Part shown: one piece after another, positions 236 to 8,339 of the stretch
Layout of the letters: every line of letters begins with the position of its first letter
Position numbering within the stretch: the stretch's first letter is position 1
DNA from: Candidatus Altimarinota bacterium
GTDB taxonomy: Bacteria > Patescibacteriota > Gracilibacteria > UBA1369
Assembly (NCBI GenBank): GCA_041659405.1
Contig: JBAZYK010000018.1
Location: 1-8,601 of the forward strand
Length of the DNA stretch: 8,601 bases
Direction: 5' to 3'
Translations under genes and position numbers: made by a program
The notes under the pieces: generated by a model
Told to the model about the DNA's origin: nothing
The model's database searches: none
What the model saw: only the letters and a program-made list of their open reading frames with translations

Positions 236-1165
236 ATGACCTATCAAGAAATCATTGAAGGCATCAAATCGCTTCAAATACAGGGAGCGGAAAAAATCGC
301 CGTCGCGGCGGTACAAGCTTTTGCGCTCAAATTAGAGGAAACTAAAAACATGTCAGAGCCAGATCACACCGCCACAGCCGCTAACCAAAGCACACCGTCC
401 GCCACCCGCGCCGCCATCCTTCAACAATCCTACCAAGAACTCGCCACCACCCGCGCCACCGAACCGGCGCTTAGAAACGCGCTCCGTTACTGTTTGCAAA
501 ACTATCAACAAAATCCGGATGTGACCAATTTTGTCATAAATTATTTTTCAGAATCCAAAAAGAAAATTGCTGAATTTGGCGCAAAAAAAATCCAAAATGG
601 CATGATTATTTTTACACATTGCCATTCTTCCACAGTTGAAGACATTTTGGCCGAAGCGCTCAAACAAGGCAAAAAATTCACCGTCTACAACACCGAAACC
701 AGACCAAAATTCCAGGGACGCATTACCGCTCAAAACATTGCCAAGCTGGGAATTCCGGTTGTGCATTTTGTGGATAGCGCAGCCCGCAACTTCATGAAAA
801 AAGCCGATCTATTTTTATTCGGTTGTGACGCGGTCAGCGCCGAAGGCAAAATTTACAATAAAATCGGTACAGCCATGATCGCCGATTATGCCCATCAAAA
901 TAATGTTCCTGCCTATTCCTGCACCAATTCCTGGAAGTTTGATCCGGAAACAATTAACGGCGCGGAAGAAATTATTGAAGAACGCGACTCAAAAGAAGTC
1001 TGGGATAATCCCCCACCGGGCGTAACCATCAAAAATCCCGCTTTCGAAATAGTAAATCCGGATATCGTCACAGGAATTATTACCGAACTTGGAATTTTCA
1101 AACCGGAAACCCTGGTGACAGAAGTTCAAAAAGCGTATCCTTGGCTGGTGGAAACTCAATTATAA
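236..1165 (+). CDS. eIF-2B alpha/beta/delta-family sugar-phosphate isomerase, most likely ribose-1,5-bisphosphate isomerase
   Basis: 309-aa ORF with family motifs THCHS, TETRPKFQGRITA, GIPVVHFVDSAARNFMKK, GCDAVSAEGKIYNKIGTA, NPAFEIV and GIITELGI. As I recall, its length and the Cys in THCHS and Asp in GCDA match the archaeal R15P isomerase better than the longer MtnA enzymes; I could not align it here. It sits directly downstream of a phosphorylase C-terminus, the classic AMP-pathway pairing. Confidence 0.8.
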   Translation: MTYQEIIEGIKSLQIQGAEKIAVAAVQAFALKLEETKNMSEPDHTATAANQSTPSATRAAILQQSYQELATTRATEPALRNALRYCLQNYQQNPDVTNFVINYFSESKKKIAEFGAKKIQNGMIIFTHCHSSTVEDILAEALKQGKKFTVYNTETRPKFQGRITAQNIAKLGIPVVHFVDSAARNFMKKADLFLFGCDAVSAEGKIYNKIGTAMIADYAHQNNVPAYSCTNSWKFDPETINGAEEIIEERDSKEVWDNPPPGVTIKNPAFEIVNPDIVTGIITELGIFKPETLVTEVQKAYPWLVETQL

Positions 1166-1222
1166 ATTCAAAATTATAATTTTATAATTCAATCCACAAT
1201 TTATAATTTATAATTTCTAATT
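1166..1222 (+). promoter_or_regulatory. AT-rich intergenic region with four TATAAT hexamers; probable promoter(s) for the deaminase gene
   Basis: TATAAT occurs at 1175-1180, 1183-1188, 1202-1207 and 1209-1214. The last is 8 nt from the GTG start at 1223. No clear -35 element and no Shine-Dalgarno motif. Confidence 0.35.
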
Positions 1223-1708
1223 GTGATAACTAAAACCGATTACAAATTCCTTCAACAACTCGATAAAATCGAACCAAAAGCACTCTGCTTGCGTGCCCAA
1301 ATTGCCTGCATGATCGTAAAAAACGGCAAAGTACTGGTTAAACACACAAATGACTGGATGAAAGGGTATCCCTGCTCCAAAATCGGCTGCATTCGTAACA
1401 TCTTAAAAATCCCTTCCGGCACCAAGCGCGAAATCTGTTATGGAATTTGCGCCGAACAATGGGCCCTTTCCATTGCGGCACAAAAAGGAATTTCGGTAAA
1501 AGGGGCAACCGCTTACGTCAGCAAACACCCATGCCGAATTTGTTCGAGCATGTTGGCAGTTGCCGGCATCAAACGTGTTGTTTATCAGGAAGGTTATCCG
1601 GACGTTTTGCCAAATTTTGATATCCTAAAAACCAGTGGAATCAAAGTGGAACAAGGCCCAAATACCGAATTCAAAGACCCACGAGTTCCAAAAAGCCACA
1701 CGATCTAA
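1223..1708 (+). CDS. cytidine/deoxycytidylate deaminase-fold zinc enzyme (dCMP deaminase / ComEB-like)
   Basis: 161-aa ORF with a GTG start; an in-frame TAA lies at 1211-1213, so GTG is the first canonical start. Zinc motifs are C-A-E (GICAEQWAL, Cys76/Glu78) and PCxxC (HPCRICSSM). The segment KGATAYVSKHPCRICSSMLAVAGIKRVVYQEGY closely follows the dCMP-deaminase pattern (GATLYVT.FPC..CA..I.QAGIKRVVY). Extra Cys residues (PCSKIGC...EICYG) resemble the second structural zinc site of ComEB-type enzymes. Confidence 0.75.
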   Translation: MITKTDYKFLQQLDKIEPKALCLRAQIACMIVKNGKVLVKHTNDWMKGYPCSKIGCIRNILKIPSGTKREICYGICAEQWALSIAAQKGISVKGATAYVSKHPCRICSSMLAVAGIKRVVYQEGYPDVLPNFDILKTSGIKVEQGPNTEFKDPRVPKSHTI

Positions 1709-3706
1709 TTACAAATCAAACTGATAAACTTTGCTTGCATCCAACAAGTATAGCTTTTTCGCCGTTGTATCAACATAAAAGTCACGAACATTGTCGATAC
1801 TGTCAAAAAGATACTGCTGGGCATAAACCAAACTTCCGGTATTAGGATCCTTATAATACGACATCACTCTATGAGTTGAAGGTTCCAAAACAAAAAGCTG
1901 ATTCATATCCGCGCTGGTCAAAACTTTTGTCGGAGCGGTTAACGGATTAATTGGCGGTTTTTTAATTACCAACTTCTGATTATTGCCACGGGCAAGTTTG
2001 AGCAATGTTCCATCAGTATTCAAAACATAAACATCACTATCAATCGCAAAAGAAATACCTTGCTTTAGATCACCATCAACATTGTATTTTTCGGCAGTAT
2101 CAAATTGATCACGCGTACGGGCATATTTCCAAATTTGATTATTGGCGGGATCCAAAATATAAATTCTATTCCCATAAGCCTGCACCACATTTCCTTTATG
2201 ATAAGCCCCTTCAGCCGCAGTTAAAGAAGAAATATGATTGTCTTTATATTCCAAAACGCGACCTTCCTTGGTAAAGAAAAGCAAAGAATCCTTATCACTA
2301 TAAACCGTAGCGCTTACAACACTATCGGTATCGTCAATTGTAAAAGGATCCTGAACCTTATCCAACAAAATAGGATAAAGAGCATTATATTCATAAGCAT
2401 ACAAAGTCCCTTTTGTCCCAAGCAATCCAAGAGCACTTACATTTTGGCGTTTGATAGCTAAATCAACCACAACTTTTGGCTGAACACGAGTAACACCATC
2501 CAATTTATCTCTTTCCTGTTTGATTGAGGTTAAAAGTTCATTTGCTCTGGACCTGCTATATCCGGAATTCAAAACGCCAACAGCTTTTTGTTCGGCATCG
2601 GTCAACATTTGTCCGGCCTTATCTTTATCGTATTGACCGGTTGTTTCAGCGGAAGCAATTGTCTCTTGAACGATGTTCAAAGTCGCATTAAATTTGCTGA
2701 TTTTGTCCTGTTCTTCAGCGTTACCACGCAACCACCAAACTCCAACCGTAAAGACCAAAACAATCACAATCAAAGCACCCATAATTTTATCTTTGGACCA
2801 ATTGCTTAAAAACATTTTCTGCAAGCCAACAGTTTCACCTCCATGCACAACACGTCCTCTTTCCGGCAAACGATTAAAATTGAAGCGGCCTAAACGACCT
2901 TTAAGGTCGCCGGCTAAAGACTTGATCTGTTTTCCAAAATCGGAAATCATCACATTCATTGATTTTCTGCGATCAACACCAGCCTCCGCAAACTCTTCCT
3001 CTTTTCTTAAATGAGCAACGACCTGGCCTTTTTCTTCAGTAGAAAGTTGTGGAGCCTGTTCGACCGCACACATACCAACAAAACCAATTCTGCCTAAAAC
3101 TTCGGTTGAAAGAAAATCCTTAAGTTCGCCAAGTGAAGCAATTAAGTTACGATTGGAAGCGATTTTTCCTAAATCGGTTTTAGTTAAATATCTAAGTAAC
3201 CTGGTCGAGCTCAACAAAACAAAATCACCAACTTCAAGAGTTCCACTGGCAATATTGGTAAAATAATCTTTTGACTCCGAATCTGCCAAGCCTTCACTCA
3301 CAATACTGCAAAAACGACGACGAACCATATAAGCCTCGGCATCGCCACATTGAGTAAGATATAAAGTTCCACCAACCACTGCCACAACCAACACATTCAA
3401 AGTCCCCAAAAAATTGGAAGGACTTTCTTTTTTTAATTGATCAAGAGCTTTATTAACAGATTTCACAGCTTCTTCAAAACGGCCATATGGATCTTTTTCC
3501 AAATCGGCATAAAAACTTTTTCGCACAGTATCAAAAATAACTTCCCCTATCGTTTCCGCCTGGGCCAGGTTATTCTGAATTTCGAGATTTATGAAAATCT
3601 TACCACTGTTTTCGCCTCCTTCACCAAGGTCATAAGCGTAATTCTCAACAAAACTACCTTCGTCCCTACCGACAAAAAGAAATTCATACTGTGTTCTTAT
3701 TGACAT
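1709..3706 (-). CDS. single-pass membrane protein: N-terminal PP2C-like (degenerate) domain, TM helix, helical linker, C-terminal beta-propeller-like repeats
   Basis: 665-aa ORF. Residues ~1-215 follow the PPM/PP2C fold pattern: FEEAVKSVNKALDQL, then GTLNVLVVAVVGGTLYLTQCGDAEAYMV, then GTLEVGDFVLLSSTRLL, then LGRIGFVGMCAV. The TM helix is IMGALIVIVLVFTVGVWWL (aa 308-326, nt 2729-2785), preceded by K/R-rich sequence, so the N-terminus is probably inside. Residues ~410-665 carry about six repeats of a hydrophobic strand, turn, strand: TLYAYEYNALYPIL, SLLFFTKEGRVLEY, RIYILDPANNQIWKY, DVYVLNTDGTLLKL, QLFVLEPSTHRVMSY, KLYLLDASKVYQF. Confidence 0.6.
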   Translation of the reverse strand: MSIRTQYEFLFVGRDEGSFVENYAYDLGEGGENSGKIFINLEIQNNLAQAETIGEVIFDTVRKSFYADLEKDPYGRFEEAVKSVNKALDQLKKESPSNFLGTLNVLVVAVVGGTLYLTQCGDAEAYMVRRRFCSIVSEGLADSESKDYFTNIASGTLEVGDFVLLSSTRLLRYLTKTDLGKIASNRNLIASLGELKDFLSTEVLGRIGFVGMCAVEQAPQLSTEEKGQVVAHLRKEEEFAEAGVDRRKSMNVMISDFGKQIKSLAGDLKGRLGRFNFNRLPERGRVVHGGETVGLQKMFLSNWSKDKIMGALIVIVLVFTVGVWWLRGNAEEQDKISKFNATLNIVQETIASAETTGQYDKDKAGQMLTDAEQKAVGVLNSGYSRSRANELLTSIKQERDKLDGVTRVQPKVVVDLAIKRQNVSALGLLGTKGTLYAYEYNALYPILLDKVQDPFTIDDTDSVVSATVYSDKDSLLFFTKEGRVLEYKDNHISSLTAAEGAYHKGNVVQAYGNRIYILDPANNQIWKYARTRDQFDTAEKYNVDGDLKQGISFAIDSDVYVLNTDGTLLKLARGNNQKLVIKKPPINPLTAPTKVLTSADMNQLFVLEPSTHRVMSYYKDPNTGSLVYAQQYLFDSIDNVRDFYVDTTAKKLYLLDASKVYQFDL

Positions 3707-3765: not shown

Positions 3766-4401
3766 ATGAAAACGCTCATAATCGACAATTACGATTCATT
3801 CACTTACAACCTTTTCCAGTACGTTGCGGAACTTGAAGGCAAGCCGGTAGTTTTTAAAAATGACAAACTCGACTTGGCAAAAATAAAAGAACTTGGGCCA
3901 TCACATATTATTATTTCGCCGGGCCCCGGAACCGTGACCAATAAAAATGATTTTGGCATTTGCGAAGAAGTGATTTTAAAATTGGGACCAACAATCCCGA
4001 TTCTGGGAGTTTGCCTTGGACATCAGGGCATTGCGCACGCCTTTGGCGGCAAAATTGAACATGCGCCACAAATCATGCACGGCAAAACAAGTTTGATTGA
4101 ATATGCGCGCGACGCAAATGGACAAGCAGCTGAGCATGTGCGTGACGCAGTTGAACCAGCGCACCCTGGCATTTTTCAAAATATCCCAAATCCGTTTATA
4201 GCCATGCGTTATCATTCACTTATAGTATCGACTCAAAATTTTCCACCGGATTTAAAAATAACCGCGTGGACAAAAGAAAAACTCATCATGGGAATTCAAC
4301 ATAGAAAATTCCCGATTTTTGGTATACAATTTCATCCGGAATCTTTTGGAACCGCAGCCGGCAAAGATATCCTTAAAAATTTCCTTAACCTTACATCATG
4401 A
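3766..4401 (+). CDS. pabA: class-I glutamine amidotransferase, anthranilate/aminodeoxychorismate synthase component II (TrpG/PabA type)
   Basis: The 211-aa ORF is colinear with PabA/TrpG: MKTLIIDNYDSFTYNLFQYV, ISPGPG, GVCLGHQ (nucleophile Cys83), HGKTS, RYHSL, GIQFHPES (His190/Glu192). TrpG and PabA cannot be told apart from sequence alone. It contains an atypical ~20-aa insertion (see findings). Confidence 0.85.
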   Translation: MKTLIIDNYDSFTYNLFQYVAELEGKPVVFKNDKLDLAKIKELGPSHIIISPGPGTVTNKNDFGICEEVILKLGPTIPILGVCLGHQGIAHAFGGKIEHAPQIMHGKTSLIEYARDANGQAAEHVRDAVEPAHPGIFQNIPNPFIAMRYHSLIVSTQNFPPDLKITAWTKEKLIMGIQHRKFPIFGIQFHPESFGTAAGKDILKNFLNLTS

Positions 4402-4646
4402 AAAACGACCTTTTTATCAACGTTATAGTTAAAACTCTTATTGGAGCAATTTTAGGAATTGCCGCCGGATTTATTCTTGGTATCGTTATTTACGGATTTT
4501 CCACTTTAATCCCACTAATAATTCCTGGTACATTTAGTTCCCCTTCTGATGCCGGTGGAATTTTCCCAATATTTGGTATGTGCTTTGGAGCCCTTTTTGG
4601 CGCAATGTTTGGAGGCCACGCAGCCTTTGGGTCAGCTAAAAAATAA
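4398..4646 (+). CDS. small hydrophobic membrane protein with two glycine-zipper helices
   Basis: 82-aa ORF. Its ATG overlaps the amidotransferase TGA (ATGA at 4398-4401), which suggests translational coupling. Two predicted TM segments carry GxxxG ladders: GAILGIAAGFILGIVIYG and GMCFGALFGAMFGG. No family recognised. Confidence 0.55.
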   Translation: MKNDLFINVIVKTLIGAILGIAAGFILGIVIYGFSTLIPLIIPGTFSSPSDAGGIFPIFGMCFGALFGAMFGGHAAFGSAKK

Positions 4647-4674: not shown

Positions 4675-4703
4675 TTGACATAAAAAGACAAGAAAGGTAT
4701 GCT
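4675..4703 (+). promoter_or_regulatory. sigma70-type promoter candidate (TTGACA-17 nt-TATGCT) upstream of the rpmH operon
   Basis: A perfect -35 TTGACA lies at 4675-4680, followed by an exactly 17-nt spacer and a -10 TATGCT at 4698-4703. It sits in the 224-nt gap between the small membrane gene and rpmH. The predicted start near 4710 would give a ~160-nt leader containing hairpin element copy 1. Confidence 0.5.
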
Positions 4704-4762
4704 CTCACAGCCGAAACTAGGGAAACCGACCAAACAAATAAGTACAACTTAGTAAATAATCA

Positions 4763-4843
4763 GTGTTCAGTTTGAGGAATGTTGGCTGAACACATCCGCC
4801 GTTGCGCCCTGTGTATCCAGACAATATTCCTCAAACTGAACAC
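4763..4843 (+). repeat. long-hairpin element, copy 1 (22-bp outer stem, conserved internal loop); candidate structured RNA or REP/MITE-like element
   Basis: 4763-4784 (GTGTTCAGTTTGAGGAATGTTG) pairs with 4822-4843 (CAATATTCCTCAAACTGAACAC). That is 21 Watson-Crick pairs plus one G-U (G4781-T4825). An inner helix ACACA (4790-4794) / TGTGT (4810-4814) is possible. It is homologous to 6661-6740. Confidence 0.7.
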
Positions 4844-4870
4844 ACCCATATAATCACTAATTGAACCCCG

Positions 4871-5023
4871 ATGCTTACCAAGCTAAAAAGAAGCAAACAC
4901 GCTAAAACTCATGGATTTCTTACCCGCATGTCAACCGCCGGCGGACGCAAAGTAATAAGTCGTCGTCGCGCCAAGGGTCGTCATCGCCTTACTGTAAGCG
5001 ACGTTCGCTACAAAGGGGTCTAA
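4871..5023 (+). CDS. rpmH: 50S ribosomal protein L34
   Basis: 50-aa ORF, below the ORF-track cutoff: [50 protein letters not shown]. It carries the L34 signature (HGF..RM.T..GR.V...RR.KGR..LTV). It lies directly upstream of rnpA in the conserved rpmH-rnpA-yidC-jag order. Confidence 0.9.
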
Positions 5024-5035
5024 GCGGATCTTTTT

Positions 5036-5368
5036 ATGATTCCGAAAAGTCAACGTCTATCCCGCAACAGCATCCAATACCTTTTGAAAAAAGGGAAAAA
5101 ATTGGTGAGCAAAGCCTTCACTCTGAAATTTCTGCCAACGACAGGACTAAAAAGTAGGTTTTGTGTTGTAATAAGCGCAAAAACCGCCCCACTGGCAGTA
5201 ACAAGAAACCTGATCCGCCGCAGAATCTACGAAGCTTTACGTTTACAAAACCATCTTTTAGCAAAACCGCACGACATCATTATCATTACTAACAAAAAGA
5301 TTCTGGATCTTAGCTATAATGAAATCGAACAAACGCTCAAAGAAATTTTCAATTCTTCAAAAACATAA
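5036..5368 (+). CDS. rnpA: ribonuclease P protein component
   Basis: 110-aa basic protein with the RNR-type motif (LAVTRNLIRRRIYEALR). Position between rpmH and yidC. Confidence 0.85.
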   Translation: MIPKSQRLSRNSIQYLLKKGKKLVSKAFTLKFLPTTGLKSRFCVVISAKTAPLAVTRNLIRRRIYEALRLQNHLLAKPHDIIIITNKKILDLSYNEIEQTLKEIFNSSKT

Positions 5369-5377
5369 AAATCCACC

Positions 5378-6643
5378 ATGAATAAAAAAACCTTCTTAAA
5401 AGACATTCTTACAGTACTCGTCATCTTCTTGGCGCTAAATTACGTTCTTAGCTTCTTTAGTAAAGGAGACCAGACCCCAACTGTAAAAACCGGAGAAATC
5501 GCCATAGAAATGAAAAATCAGTTTGATCTTGGCAGTATTGTAGAGGCCAATATCACCAATAATACCGACAAAACCGCCATCATCAAAAATGAATGTCCGC
5601 AGGAACCTTTAAATGTTTTGGAATATACCAACAATCAATGGACTCCAAAAATTATAATCGCAGATATAAAATGTGATGGCAGCAGCGACACAGAAATCGC
5701 CCCAGGCGGGAAAGCAACAATCGCCTACTCTTCCTGGAATCATTCCTTATTTAGAGAATTTGGCCGATACAAAATCAGTGCCACTGTAACTTTAAAAGAC
5801 GCCAACAATCAAACTGAACAAAAAACCGTTGAATCTCCTGAATTTCAAATTCAACCGGAAGGCTGGTTTAGCATTTTTTGGACTAAAATCTTCTATCAAC
5901 CGGTTTATAACGTGCTCTTTTTAATCATCAAAGCAATGCCGGGGAATGACCTTGGTTTAGCCATTCTTCTGCTGACAATCATTATAAGAACAATTCTGTT
6001 AATCCCTTCCCAAAAAGCTCTTAAATCTCAACGCAAGCTTCAGGAAGTTCAACCAAAACTCAAACATATTCGTGAAAAGCACAAAGATGACCAGGAAGCC
6101 ATTGCGCGTGAAACTATGGCCATCTGGAAAGAACATAAAGTTAACCCTTTTGGCAGCTGTTTGCCACTGGTTATTCAAATTCCGGTCTTGATTGCGCTTT
6201 TTTATGTGGTTCGTGACGGCTTAAACCCGGATAATGCCTATCTTCTGTACAATGGCCTGCAAAACTTCTCATTCAATTCAATCCAGGTAAATTTTTTGAA
6301 TATTCTTGATCTTACCAAAGTAAACTATTACGTTTTACCATTAATAGTTGGGGTACTACAGTTTTTGCAGATGAAATTGGCGATTGTTAAAACCGCCACT
6401 CCAAAAGTAAAAAACAAAGAAGTTCAAAAAGAAATCAAGAAAGAAAAGAATGAAATGGACATGGTTAATGGAAGCATGACTTACATAATGCCGATTATGA
6501 TCGCCGTATTTACAGCCGGAGTTCCAGCCGGTGTTGGCTTATATTGGGGCACATCCACCCTTTATGGAATTATCCAACAATTAGTTATAAACAACCAGAG
6601 CAAAAAAGAAAAAGCCAGCGTGAAAGTTATCGAAAAAAATTAA
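5378..6643 (+). CDS. yidC: membrane protein insertase YidC/Oxa1 family
   Basis: 421 aa with an N-terminal TM anchor and a ~130-aa extracytoplasmic domain. The conserved core follows: GLAILLLTIIIRTILLIPSQKALKSQRKLQEVQPKLKHIREKHKDDQEAIARETMAIWKEHKVNPFGSCLPLVIQIPVLIALFYVV ... GVGLYWGTSTLYGIIQQ. It has a K-rich loop and a basic C-terminal tail. Synteny with rnpA and jag. Confidence 0.9.
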   Translation: MNKKTFLKDILTVLVIFLALNYVLSFFSKGDQTPTVKTGEIAIEMKNQFDLGSIVEANITNNTDKTAIIKNECPQEPLNVLEYTNNQWTPKIIIADIKCDGSSDTEIAPGGKATIAYSSWNHSLFREFGRYKISATVTLKDANNQTEQKTVESPEFQIQPEGWFSIFWTKIFYQPVYNVLFLIIKAMPGNDLGLAILLLTIIIRTILLIPSQKALKSQRKLQEVQPKLKHIREKHKDDQEAIARETMAIWKEHKVNPFGSCLPLVIQIPVLIALFYVVRDGLNPDNAYLLYNGLQNFSFNSIQVNFLNILDLTKVNYYVLPLIVGVLQFLQMKLAIVKTATPKVKNKEVQKEIKKEKNEMDMVNGSMTYIMPIMIAVFTAGVPAGVGLYWGTSTLYGIIQQLVINNQSKKEKASVKVIEKN

Positions 6644-6660: not shown

Positions 6661-6740
6661 GTGTTCAGTTCGGAAATGTTGGCTGAGCACAGCCGGGGTA
6701 GGGGCCCTGTGTGCGAAGACAATATTTCCGAACTGAACAT
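6661..6740 (+). repeat. long-hairpin element, copy 2 (21-22-bp outer stem), intercistronic between yidC and jag
   Basis: 6661-6681 (GTGTTCAGTTCGGAAATGTTG) pairs with 6720-6740 (CAATATTTCCGAACTGAACAT). That is 19 Watson-Crick pairs plus two G-U (G6661-T6740, G6678-T6723), and T6660-A6741 can extend the stem. The inner helix is GCACAG (6687-6692) / CTGTGT (6707-6712). It shares GTGTTCAGTT, AATGTTGGCTGA, CACA, CCCTGTGT, AGACAATATT and AACTGAACA with copy 1. Confidence 0.7.
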
Positions 6741-6743
6741 AAC

Positions 6744-6761
6744 TTATAACTTATAAATTTC
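6744..6761 (+). promoter_or_regulatory. tandem TTATAA(C/A) motif abutting the jag start codon; possible promoter giving a leaderless or very short-leader mRNA
   Basis: TTATAACTTATAAATTTC lies immediately before ATG 6762. It is nearly identical to TTATAATTTATAATTTC at 1201-1217, upstream of the deaminase GTG. Confidence 0.3.
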
Positions 6762-7223
6762 ATGGAATCACTAATTCAAGAAACACTTCAGGAACTTTTG
6801 GAAAAACTATCTACACCTTTCCGCAAAATTCGCATTGAGAAACGTGATGAAAATACTTATCGCGTCAATATAGAAAGCGAAGAACCAAGCCTTTTAATTG
6901 GCCATCATGGTGAAAACATCGGGGCGCTCCAAAGCATTCTAAAAAGCCTAATCTGGAGCAAACAGGACGGCGAATTTAACATTATTCTTGATATTGATGA
7001 TTACCGCAAACGCCAGGAGGAAAACGTGATTAAACTCGCAGAAAGAAAAGTGGACATGGTCAGAAAAACCAATCAACCACAACCACTTCCGGCAATGTCG
7101 CCTTATTTCCGCAGAGTTGTTCATCTTCATCTTGCCGCAAAATTCCCGGACATTGTTTCCGAAAGCGCCGGTGAAGGCGATTTCCGCCACATCACAATAA
7201 AAACGGCTGCGCCACAAAGTTAA
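6762..7223 (+). CDS. jag: Jag/SpoIIIJ-associated RNA-binding protein (KH + R3H domains), short form lacking the Jag_N domain
   Basis: 153 aa. KH-like segment LLIGHHGENIGALQSILKSL. R3H-like segment RRVVHLHLAAKFPDIVSESAGEGDFRHITIK. Conserved position downstream of yidC. Confidence 0.8.
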   Translation: MESLIQETLQELLEKLSTPFRKIRIEKRDENTYRVNIESEEPSLLIGHHGENIGALQSILKSLIWSKQDGEFNIILDIDDYRKRQEENVIKLAERKVDMVRKTNQPQPLPAMSPYFRRVVHLHLAAKFPDIVSESAGEGDFRHITIKTAAPQS

Positions 7224-7253
7224 TTGCGTTTTCTAAAGTTTAAAAGCCCATCT

Positions 7254-8339
7254 ATGAAAAAGCTCAACTTGGTGCGCAAAACACTAACTTCAATCGCATT
7301 TGGCACAAGCCTGATGCTGGCTTTTGTTTTTGCTGCTCAAGCCCAAACTCCCACAGATACTCAACAAACTCAGCAAACGCAGGCTTTAACTGAACAGACT
7401 CAACAAACTCAGGTTTCAACCCAGGAAACTCAAGTCACAACTCAACAAACTCAAGCTGCAACACAGCAAACTCAACAAACCACCCAACAGACGCAGGATA
7501 CCACACCCATGTTTAGCGATATTCCGATCGGAAGCACGCACTATTATGCAATTAAATACCTAAAAGATCACAACATCATTCACGGTTATGATGATGGAAC
7601 GTTTCGCTCCAACAAAGAAATCAACCGTGCCGAGGCCCTAAAAATAATTTTAGGCGCAATATCCAAAGATCCACAAAAAAAAGATGTCCCCACTTTTGAA
7701 GATGTTAAAGAAACCGCCTGGTTTTATCCTTTTGTTTTACAGGGTTATCAAAATGAAATTATTAAAGGTTATCCTGATGAACTCTTTCATCCTGAACAAA
7801 CCATTACGCGCGTAGAAGCACTTAAAATGGCCTTGTTGCAAGAAAACAAGACAATTTCTACAGATGTAACCGTCCGCCCATACAGCGACGTGCCAATTGA
7901 TGTTTGGTACACGCCTTATGCCAAAGTTTCCAAGGACCGCGGCTTATTTGTGGAAACCAGAACCAATGGCGGCCAACTTTTACCTGCAACAACGGTAAAT
8001 CGCGGAGAATTCGCCGAAATGATGTATCACCTGATTGAAAGCAATAATGGCTCAATCTTCAACCGCGCCAGTTACTATTCTGACTTTTTTGCCGGACGGA
8101 ATACTTCAAGCGGAGTTCCTTATAATCCGAACATTTTCACTGCCGCACATAAAACTCTACCATTTGGCACGATTTTAATCGTAAAAAATTTAGCCAATGG
8201 CCAAGAAGTGGAAGTAAAGGTAAATGACCGCGGACCTTTTGCCACAGGCATAAGTTTGGACCTTTCCAAATCCGCGTTTGCCAGCATTGCCGCAACCAGC
8301 GCCGGCATAATCAACATAGAATATAAAATCAAACAGTAA
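7254..8339 (+). CDS. secreted cell-wall-associated protein: signal peptide, T/Q-rich linker, three SLH domains, C-terminal RlpA-like double-psi beta-barrel (lytic transglycosylase-type) domain
   Basis: ATG 7254 is preferred over the track's TTG 7224 because it yields a canonical signal peptide, MKKLNLVRKTLTSIAFGTSLMLAFVFAAQA|QTP. SLH-like units: FSDIPIGSTHYYAIKYLKDHNIIHGYDDGTFRSNKEINRAEALKII, FEDVKETAWFYPFVLQGYQNEIIKGYPDELFHPEQTITRVEALKMAL, YSDVPIDVWYTPYAKVS...TVNRGEFAEMMYHLI. The C-terminus ASYYSDFFAGRNTSSGVPYNPNIFTAAHKTLPFGTILIVKNLANGQEVEVKVNDRGPFATGISLDLSKSAF matches the RlpA DPBB pattern (ASWYG..F.G..TA.GE.Y....TAAH.TLP.G....V.N..NG....V.VNDRGPF...R..DLS..A). Confidence 0.8.
   Translation: MKKLNLVRKTLTSIAFGTSLMLAFVFAAQAQTPTDTQQTQQTQALTEQTQQTQVSTQETQVTTQQTQAATQQTQQTTQQTQDTTPMFSDIPIGSTHYYAIKYLKDHNIIHGYDDGTFRSNKEINRAEALKIILGAISKDPQKKDVPTFEDVKETAWFYPFVLQGYQNEIIKGYPDELFHPEQTITRVEALKMALLQENKTISTDVTVRPYSDVPIDVWYTPYAKVSKDRGLFVETRTNGGQLLPATTVNRGEFAEMMYHLIESNNGSIFNRASYYSDFFAGRNTSSGVPYNPNIFTAAHKTLPFGTILIVKNLANGQEVEVKVNDRGPFATGISLDLSKSAFASIAATSAGIINIEYKIKQ
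7344..7508 (+). repeat. in-frame imperfect tandem repeats encoding a Thr/Gln-rich low-complexity linker
   Basis: ACTCAACAAAC recurs at 7359, 7398, 7440 and 7470, with spacings of 39, 42 and 30 nt, all multiples of 3. The peptide reads QTPTDTQQTQQTQALTEQTQQTQVSTQETQVTTQQTQAATQQTQQTTQQTQDTTP. Confidence 0.8.

Follow-up and report, generated by a model that had tools for sequence, protein, structure and literature searches.

The window, that is, the whole stretch of 8,601 nucleotides that was analysed, contains two similar hairpin elements of about 80 nt, one ahead of rpmH and the other between yidC and jag. The question they raise is whether they constitute an RNA structure under selection on the plus strand, as the initial annotation had proposed, or a repeat of another kind. 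The host of these elements is an uncultivated CPR bacterium of the Peregrinibacteria/Gracilibacteria class; the YidC of the window belongs to Candidatus Gracilibacteria according to the source naming, and its more distant homologues are found in Peregrinibacteria.

Two hairpin elements around rpmH and jag

The ORFs of the window, intact under the standard genetic code, are an mtnA-like gene (236-1165), a deaminase gene (1223-1708), a gene for a 665-aa protein of unknown function (1709-3706, minus strand), a GATase gene (3766-4401), an 82-aa ORF (4398-4646), rpmH (4871-5023), rnpA (5036-5368), yidC (5378-6643), jag/khpB (6762-7223) and a gene for an SLH+DPBB protein (7224-8339). At 1708/1709, the deaminase gene (plus strand) and the 665-aa gene (minus strand) converge with zero bases between their stop codons, such that no terminator-like structure is possible there. 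Tandem repeats of 21 nt (ACTCAACAAACTCAR..., window 7359-7502) form a Thr/Gln-rich low-complexity linker of the SLH+DPBB (RlpA-like) protein. In this clade, AT-rich stretches in which CTAATT / TAATTGA recurs, with no evident Shine-Dalgarno-like sequence, lie immediately ahead of start codons (window 1157-1223; L032 2806-2850 and 4625-4653; L013 7243-7269), an example being TTTCTAATTG ahead of the GTG at window 1223; they may be a clade-specific initiation or promoter signal.

The first element, c1 (4763..4843, plus strand), is a full hairpin element of 81 nt in the 5' leader of rpmH and ends 27 nt short of the rpmH ATG (4871). Its outer stem consists of a 5' arm of 22 nt (4763..4784, plus strand), which opens with the terminal 8-mer GTGTTCAG (4763-4770) and includes G4781 of the G-U pair conserved between the copies, and of a 3' arm (4822..4843, plus strand), which closes with the terminal 8-mer CTGAACAC (4836-4843). 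An inner 8-mer CTGAACAC (4786..4793, plus strand) is the reverse complement of the 5' terminus of c1, and when it is paired with 4763-4772 the 5' arm folds alone into a 10-bp stem (-13 kcal/mol). The apical region TCCGCCGTTGCGCCC (4795..4809, plus strand) is situated between the conserved helix strands ACACA (4790-4794) and TGTGT (4810-4814).

Upstream of c1 lies a promoter-like TTGACA-17-TATGCT (4675..4703, plus strand), which is conserved, with ACAGC following, in three genomes that share 59-75% YidC identity. In its longer form, ATTTGACA-N17-TATGCT-yTsACAGC, it occupies 4675-4712 in the window, about 5038-5075 in L009 and about 5457-5494 in L013, and the version found in the relatives L032 and L033 reads TTGACA-17-TATCCT. 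Since this conserved site precedes c1, the element is placed within the rpmH leader and transcript.

The second element, c2 (6661..6740, plus strand), is a full hairpin element of 80 nt; it begins 17 nt past the yidC stop codon (6643) and ends 21 nt ahead of the jag/khpB start codon (ATG at 6762). In its core (6685..6716, plus strand), GA (6685-6686) lies opposite GA (6715-6716) in a tandem G-A internal loop, together with a GCACA/TGTGC helix and the apical sequence CCGGGGTAGGGGCC. Directly after c2 and ahead of the jag start codon, a 7-nt tandem duplication (AACTTAT twice) is found at window 6741-6754.

The homology of the two elements described in the initial annotation is evident from their alignment (89% column identity). 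The similarity ends at the base of the stem: identity is 83% with the flanks added, and the flanks themselves show no convincing alignment. Folded as RNA, the plus strand reaches a minimum free energy of -44.7 kcal/mol in c1 (z -11.0) and of -50.3 kcal/mol in c2 (z -9.4), with 0 of 200 shuffles as good in either case, and the outer stems measure 22 bp and 21 bp, respectively, as had been described. The minus strands are also stable (-44.6 and -38.4 kcal/mol).

Concerning the middle of the stem (TGAGG/CCTCA in c1 vs CGGA/TCCG in c2), the compensatory change with a length difference of 1 nt per arm that had been noted before was found again: U-A is replaced by C-G and G-C by A-U, c2 has lost one A-U pair through an indel of 1 nt in each arm, and no pairing is disrupted. 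Equally, the three non-Watson-Crick pairs of the stems (G4781-T4825, G6678-T6723 and the terminal G6661-T6740) are all G-U on the plus strand, just as claimed. The covariation between c1 and c2, resting on two sequences only, is not statistically distinct from that of shuffles (115/500). The argument for the plus strand that had been drawn from the G-U pairs is thin within the window, because the minus strand of c1 and c2 folds very well too; both the covariation and the strand argument became stronger after further copies had been found.

No U-tract follows c1 or c2, and the terminator scan made no call at either hairpin, in agreement with the earlier statement that they are not classical intrinsic terminators. 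Nor do they match an Rfam family, and the initial annotation had recognised no named family in them either: in an Rfam 15 search of the window (E<=10), the elements obtained only sub-threshold miRNA/lncRNA noise, the best overlapping matches being MIR840, a plant miRNA model (26 bits vs a gathering score of 150), and mir-725 (20.5 vs 76).

Further copies and the anatomy of the family

The source contig was walked by two protein searches and look-ups, and 38.2 kb of the 110.5-kb ENA metagenome contig k141_167353 of ERZ27249449, at the end of which the window is situated, were read. Three covariance models were used, built from c1 and c2 (R1), from c1 to c3 (R2), and from all five full copies (R3, the final model); R1 and R3 give c1 103 and 61.9 bits, respectively, and c2 96.8 and 52.9 bits. 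The search for further copies, envisaged in the initial annotation, was productive: the models independently detected three more full copies, up to 25 kb distant, and one truncated copy.

The copy c3 (L001 4038-4119; R1: 17 bits, E 0.08) lies 5.7 kb upstream of the window and folds with -39.1 kcal/mol (z -8.7). It shares with c1 the exact 11-mer TGAACACATCC as well as CTGTGT and AGRAC; its outer stem is of a wholly different sequence, such that the terminal 8-mers are absent and the termini replaced, with the long stem kept and the interior (TGAACACATCC...CTGTGT) retained, and the AUG of a PHP-domain gene takes part in the pairing at the base of this stem. In c4 (L029 16686-16767; R2: 60 bits), situated between ftsH and hsp20, the arms of 31 nt are 100% complementary, and all internal loops are lost, resulting in a perfect 31-bp palindrome. 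The copy c5a (L029 16053-16134; R2: 51 bits) follows directly after hsp20 and is abutted by the truncated c5b, which comprises the core and the 3' arm, lacks the 5' arm, and ends 9 nt short of the real start of a galU-like gene.

In total, five full copies and a partial one exist in 38.2 kb of one genome, all of them intergenic; one apparent overlap with an ORF goes back to a spurious N-terminal extension of the called ORF. This call, a 340-aa NTP-transferase ORF, begins with an extension (L029 15981-16136, minus strand) read through c5a and c5b (VYSDCKNISEHIRGRGPVCEG...), and the true start is MKIRKAVFPAAG at L029 15980; the element, when translated in this manner, thus corrupts automatic annotation. 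No copy was found in the 10-kb stretch of contig next in the walk after c3, the 10 kb after that contained c4, c5a and c5b, and R3 applied to 77 kb, including the relatives L009 and L013, detected nothing beyond the known copies; L032 and L033 contained none either. The genes downstream of the copies (a PHP-domain gene, rpmH, jag, hsp20 and the galU-like gene) are functionally unrelated. Relative to the downstream start codon, the 3' ends of the copies range from 27 nt ahead of its position to 1 nt past it; the distance from the upstream stop codon to the start of the copy is 10-29 nt for c2, c4 and c5a and 117 nt for c1.

At the gathering threshold, the sole Rfam match in 39 kb of the contig is a bacterial class A RNase P RNA (L029 12702-13134, minus strand, 143.7 bits), located away from the elements. 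A perfect 19-bp hairpin with a 10-nt loop (L029 13196-13243), situated 62 nt upstream of this RNA, is unrelated to the family.

Each element contains the 8-mer GTGTTCAG/CTGAACAC four times in alternating orientation (at the 5' end, at the inner 5', the inner 3' and the 3' end), the inner 3' 8-mer being degenerate in most copies; the order is GTGTTCAG, spacer, CTGAACAC, loop, GTGT..AG, complementary spacer, CTGAACAC. In 38 kb, this 8-mer is found nine times, eight of them within elements. From the fourfold, alternating arrangement it follows that the element is an inverted doublet of a small palindrome, which is the architecture of REPINs and hairpin MITEs. The arms, or terminal inverted repeats, measure 22-31 bp, and the termini are conserved in four of the five full copies, with c3 as the exception; the 5' ends read GTGT (c1, c2), GTAT (c5a) and TTGT (c4). 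The full hairpins of the five copies range from -38 to -54 kcal/mol; as in c1, the 5' arm of c2 alone forms 10 bp (-13 kcal/mol), and the 3' arm alone folds weakly.

The structural alignment of the five full copies was made by hand, c3, c4 and c5a having been found by models blind to them. In this alignment, 98.6% of the stem cells pair, 17 of the 30 pairs differ in both partners, and none of 500 shuffles equals this result, counts that lean towards structure because the alignment was fitted to it. The 15-nt spacers between the 8-mers vary between copies with full compensation across the arms; the stem differences in the added copies are thus compensatory, as would be expected from the initial annotation. 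Towards the loop, the interior consists of a 1x1 purine mismatch, a helix of 2-3 bp, a GA/GA tandem loop and an ACACA/UGUGU helix. The GA/GA loop is present in c2, c3 and c5a, replaced in c1 and fully paired in c4, and c5b exhibits the same GA...GCGA sequence as the copies with this loop. The apical CCGGGGTAGGGGCC is common to c2, c4, c5a and c5b.

The flanks of c1, c2, c4 and c5 contain neither a direct repeat adjoining the ends, i.e., a target-site duplication, nor a conserved flanking target, and the genes called in 38 kb include no transposase, RAYT gene or IS. A T-run is absent after every copy, and the terminator scan made no call at any of them. In the 38-kb contig there are exactly three sites of an 11-mer, AATCACTAATT, against an expectation of about 0.02, and each lies 6-26 nt downstream, in gene sense, of a copy: at 4852..4862 (plus strand), 9 nt downstream of c1; at 6766..6776 (plus strand), 26 nt downstream of c2 and within jag codons 2-5; and at L029 16670-16680 (minus strand), downstream of c4. 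This 11-mer may reflect a preferred target site, serve as a regulatory motif or belong to a larger repeat unit.

Outside this genome, the pattern TGTTCAGTTN{3,8}ATGTTGGCTGA, specific to c1 and c2, gave seven matches among the GTDB species genomes, roughly as many as chance would produce; the inner core motif is missing from all seven, and the one inspected (Vampirovibrio, L003) is coding sequence. In JGI metagenomes, TGTTGGCTGAN{25,35}AGACAATATT, also specific to c1 and c2, found only the contig of the same organism, the other 11 loci being chance matches. The family-wide 20-mer CCGGGGTAGGGGCCCTGTGT had no match in viral contigs, and distant blastn searches with c5a and c5b had none in phage and plasmid collections.

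Several other readings of the element were discarded. A translated search against 1.84 billion representatives, considering it as a protein, returned three unrelated repetitive proteins. The template and variable repeat (TR/VR) pair of a diversity-generating retroelement was rejected, since adenines are not specifically affected where the copies differ and the called genes include no reverse transcriptase. Retron, CRISPR and tRNA-like readings lacked supporting features, ARAGORN finding nothing.

Orthologous sites in relatives and the question of the strand

In the closest relative, L009 (GCA_020049755.1), whose YidC is 75% identical, the region is syntenic and the element is absent. It is equally absent upstream of rpmH and jag in L013, L032 and L033, with no covariance-model match in any of these four relatives, and, as judged by intergenic length, in two further relatives available as gene tables only. 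In the latter two as well as in L013, L032 and L033, a leader of about 30 nt directly after the conserved promoter precedes rpmH, and the gap between yidC and jag amounts to 10-39 nt where jag is adjacent. Given these short leaders and the missing model matches, the hairpins of c1 and c2 are lineage-specific insertions and not conserved leaders, and c1 is an insertion into the 5' UTR of rpmH. The reading of the initial annotation is therefore to be divided: it correctly recognised that these are no chance palindromes and that their pairing is maintained, but the implied reading as a dedicated, conserved RNA element is not supported, as the family is a multi-copy repeat confined to one genome.

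At both orthologous sites, L009 possesses a different short hairpin, AGCGAGGCC-loop-GGCCGAGCT (5133-5151 and 7030-7049), followed in both cases by ATTACTAATTATTAA, and a third hairpin, AAACGCGAGC-AAAA-GCGAGCGTTT, is situated at about 5077-5100. All three exhibit a CGAG/CGAG tandem G-A internal loop. The two at the orthologous sites are a hint that a hairpin may be needed at these particular positions.

Compared with other assemblies of the same organism, the window shows 9 differences from the ENA contig (2981, 5335, 5389, 5396, 5560, 5839, 5842, 8030, 8031), 21 from a JGI contig and 4 from a Logan contig, from which the existence of several strains follows. None of these differences falls inside c1 or c2, such that strain variation is uninformative on covariation. 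The Logan short-read contig L012 ends inside c2.

Concerning the strand, the canonical one folds better than its complement in all five full copies, by 0.1 to 17.4 kcal/mol with RNA parameters and by 1.2 to 7.9 kcal/mol with DNA parameters. Over all copies, the stem mismatches comprise five G-U, no A-C, one G-G and one terminal U-C. With respect to the flanking genes, to which the initial annotation had proposed to relate all copies, the canonical strand is the sense strand in c1, c2, c3, c5a and c5b; in c4 it is the antisense strand, an assignment based on the loop alone, as the arms form a perfect palindrome. Because the flanking genes all lie on one absolute strand, orientation to transcription is here inseparable from orientation to the chromosome. 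Furthermore, G-T wobble and G-A pairs stabilise hairpins of single-stranded DNA too, and the strand bias is therefore no proof of selection on RNA.

Origin of the repeats and comparison with known systems

Taken together, the elements are probably lineage-specific, REPIN/MITE-like palindromic intergenic repeats of about 80 nt, co-transcribed with neighbouring genes and kept as hairpins. This explanation follows from their presence in multiple copies in one genome and absence in relatives, the similarity bounded by the hairpin, the doublet architecture, the truncated tandem copy, the one loop in opposite orientation, and the unrelated genes. The family would have spread into intergenic gaps as non-autonomous mobile DNA, probably with a single-stranded hairpin as intermediate and a transposase, encoded at another place in the genome, that recognises it. 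The copies lie between co-directional genes, and a conserved promoter precedes c1; transcription of the elements within mRNAs is therefore expected. There, hairpins of about 22-31 bp may act as natural RNase III substrates and 3'-end protectors, and by analogy with the Correia elements of Neisseria they might punctuate the transcript, so that the stability or translation of one cistron becomes independent of that of its neighbour. Pairing is kept by compensatory change, and the mismatches seen are only those that are stable in gene sense (G-U, tandem G-A).

Several observations stand against simple mobile DNA: there is no target-site duplication, no transposase in 38 kb, and the mismatch spectrum is strand-biased. 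Besides, the sample comprises 38 kb of a single genome, one 10-kb stretch of it is free of copies, and the scans of collections with patterns specific to c1 and c2 revealed none elsewhere. Moreover, c3 has its interior conserved over its termini, although the termini of a MITE should be most conserved. Together with the G-A-loop hairpins of L009, these points keep alive, at a low probability, a reading in which the hairpins are RNA modules. In its general form, a dedicated cis-acting structured RNA, i.e., a hairpin recognised by a protein or RNase through a functional, conserved interior, would co-regulate processing or translation from the 5' UTRs of the PHP-domain gene, rpmH, jag, hsp20 and the galU-like gene. 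This is unlikely, even though the interior sequence is conserved where the outer stem of c3 covaries completely, the canonical strand is the better one in 5/5 copies with 5 G-U vs 0 A-C, the tandem GA/GA loop recurs in c2, c3 and c5a (with the same sequence in c5b), the copies end near start codons, c3 even pairing with the AUG itself, and L009 bears other hairpins with the CGAG/CGAG loop at both sites. The element is missing from the orthologous sites of relatives and has no Rfam match; the loop of c4 is antisense and its internal loops are lost in a perfect 31-bp palindrome; the GA/GA loop is missing in c1; one copy is truncated; and the downstream genes are functionally unrelated. The same asymmetries would, according to the folds with DNA parameters, also be selected on a single-stranded DNA intermediate. 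Rather more doubtful is the specific version in which the hairpins carry a small recognition module read by a CPR RNA-binding protein or RNase, a domesticated signal and not selfish DNA. This module, situated in the 5' UTRs of rpmH, jag and other genes, would be made up of a purine-purine mismatch, a 2-3-bp helix, the tandem G-A loop and a 4-5-bp helix, and L009 would keep the same module at both sites on an unrelated, much shorter hairpin.

Sites bound by a protein at the DNA level, with the 8-mer GTGTTCAG/CTGAACAC as operator or architectural site and the hairpin potential as a by-product, would agree with the concentration of 8/9 8-mers in 38 kb inside elements located just upstream of start codons. 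Such sites are nevertheless improbable, as the spacing of binding sites does not need 15-nt spacers that change strictly compensatorily, c3 keeps a long stem without the terminal 8-mers, and the inner 3' 8-mer is degenerate in most copies. No more credible are intrinsic terminators or attenuators without U-tract that would end upstream units (yidC, ftsH, hsp20 and others): c2, c4 and c5a do start 10-29 nt after the upstream stop codon and all hairpins are very stable, but a U-tract follows none of the copies, no terminator-like call was made at their coordinates, c1 is separated from the upstream stop by 117 nt and lies, past the conserved rpmH promoter, inside the leader, and relatives handle the same junctions without a hairpin. 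A local duplication or chance pair of palindromes without wider significance might have been suspected from the window with its two copies, and from the scans of collections specific to c1 and c2 that found none elsewhere; it has next to no probability and is refuted by the three full copies and the partial one found with the covariance models up to 25 kb away, as well as by z values of -9 to -11.

If the preferred reading as REPIN/MITE-like repeats is correct, such a palindromic repeat, present roughly once every 7 kb and lying in the 5' UTRs of the core genes rpmH, jag and hsp20, would demonstrate that proliferating miniature repeats persist even in streamlined CPR genomes. The genomes of CPR bacteria (Patescibacteria) have a size of about 1 Mb and are tightly packed, and a literature search found no REP-, REPIN- or MITE-type repeats described for them. 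The family is a natural setting in which to ask whether selection acts on hairpin repeats in their RNA or their single-stranded DNA form. It also has consequences for annotation and assembly, with one copy read as a spurious ORF extension and one short-read contig ending within c2. Were the minority reading as a recognition module true, a new RNA-protein recognition module would exist in an uncultivated phylum.

Among known systems, the RNase III signals of phage T7 are paralogous intercistronic hairpins with stems of about 20 bp and internal loops, in sense orientation within polycistronic transcripts; they are fixed parts of one transcription unit and not dispersed repeats. The present elements share with them stems of about 20 bp with internal loops between cistrons, and cleavage is here predicted. 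Hairpin MITEs or PATEs, e.g., the palindrome-associated elements derived from IS200/IS605, are non-coding, palindromic, intergenic, multi-copy and lineage-specific insertions, and their strand-specific imperfect hairpin fits recognition as single-stranded DNA. The family described here is likewise non-coding, palindromic, intergenic, multi-copy and lineage-specific, whereas no parent IS, target-site duplication or conserved flanking target was found, and the terminal repeats of the other copies are not shared by c3.

The Correia repeat-enclosed elements (CREE or NEMIS) of Neisseria carry a TA target duplication. Like the present elements, they are small intergenic inverted repeats, often situated 5' of genes between the native promoter and the gene (PMC2649163). 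They measure 70-157 bp, possess IHF sites and promoter-generating ends, and are co-transcribed, their inverted repeats forming an mRNA hairpin that RNase III binds and either cleaves or protects (PMC2649163). For repeats transcribed as long hairpins, binding or cleavage by RNase III with altered mRNA stability is the effect best documented, as in these elements (PMC2649163). In contrast, the present family has no sequence similarity to them, no target-site duplication and no -35/-10 pair called within its ends, and the step by RNase III would apply here by analogy.

REPs carry a tetranucleotide head of the GTAG type, which differs from the 5' ends GTGT, GTAT and TTGT found here. A further difference concerns the cognate RAYT (Y1 transposase) gene, which REPs typically flank and which is absent from the 38 kb read here. 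REPs exist in tens to hundreds of copies per genome, and the count of five full copies and a partial one is here that of 38.2 kb; the host is a CPR bacterium. The REPINs, i.e., REP doublets forming hairpins (Pseudomonas fluorescens and others; Bertels & Rainey 2011), are alike in being extragenic elements of about 80-100 nt in which a short palindromic unit and its inverted copy enclose a spacer; they form one long hairpin or two small ones and exist in multiple copies, with occasional clusters and truncated singlets (PMC3116915). Compensatory changes across the hairpin are common among REPINs and are equally found in the present family (PMC3116915).
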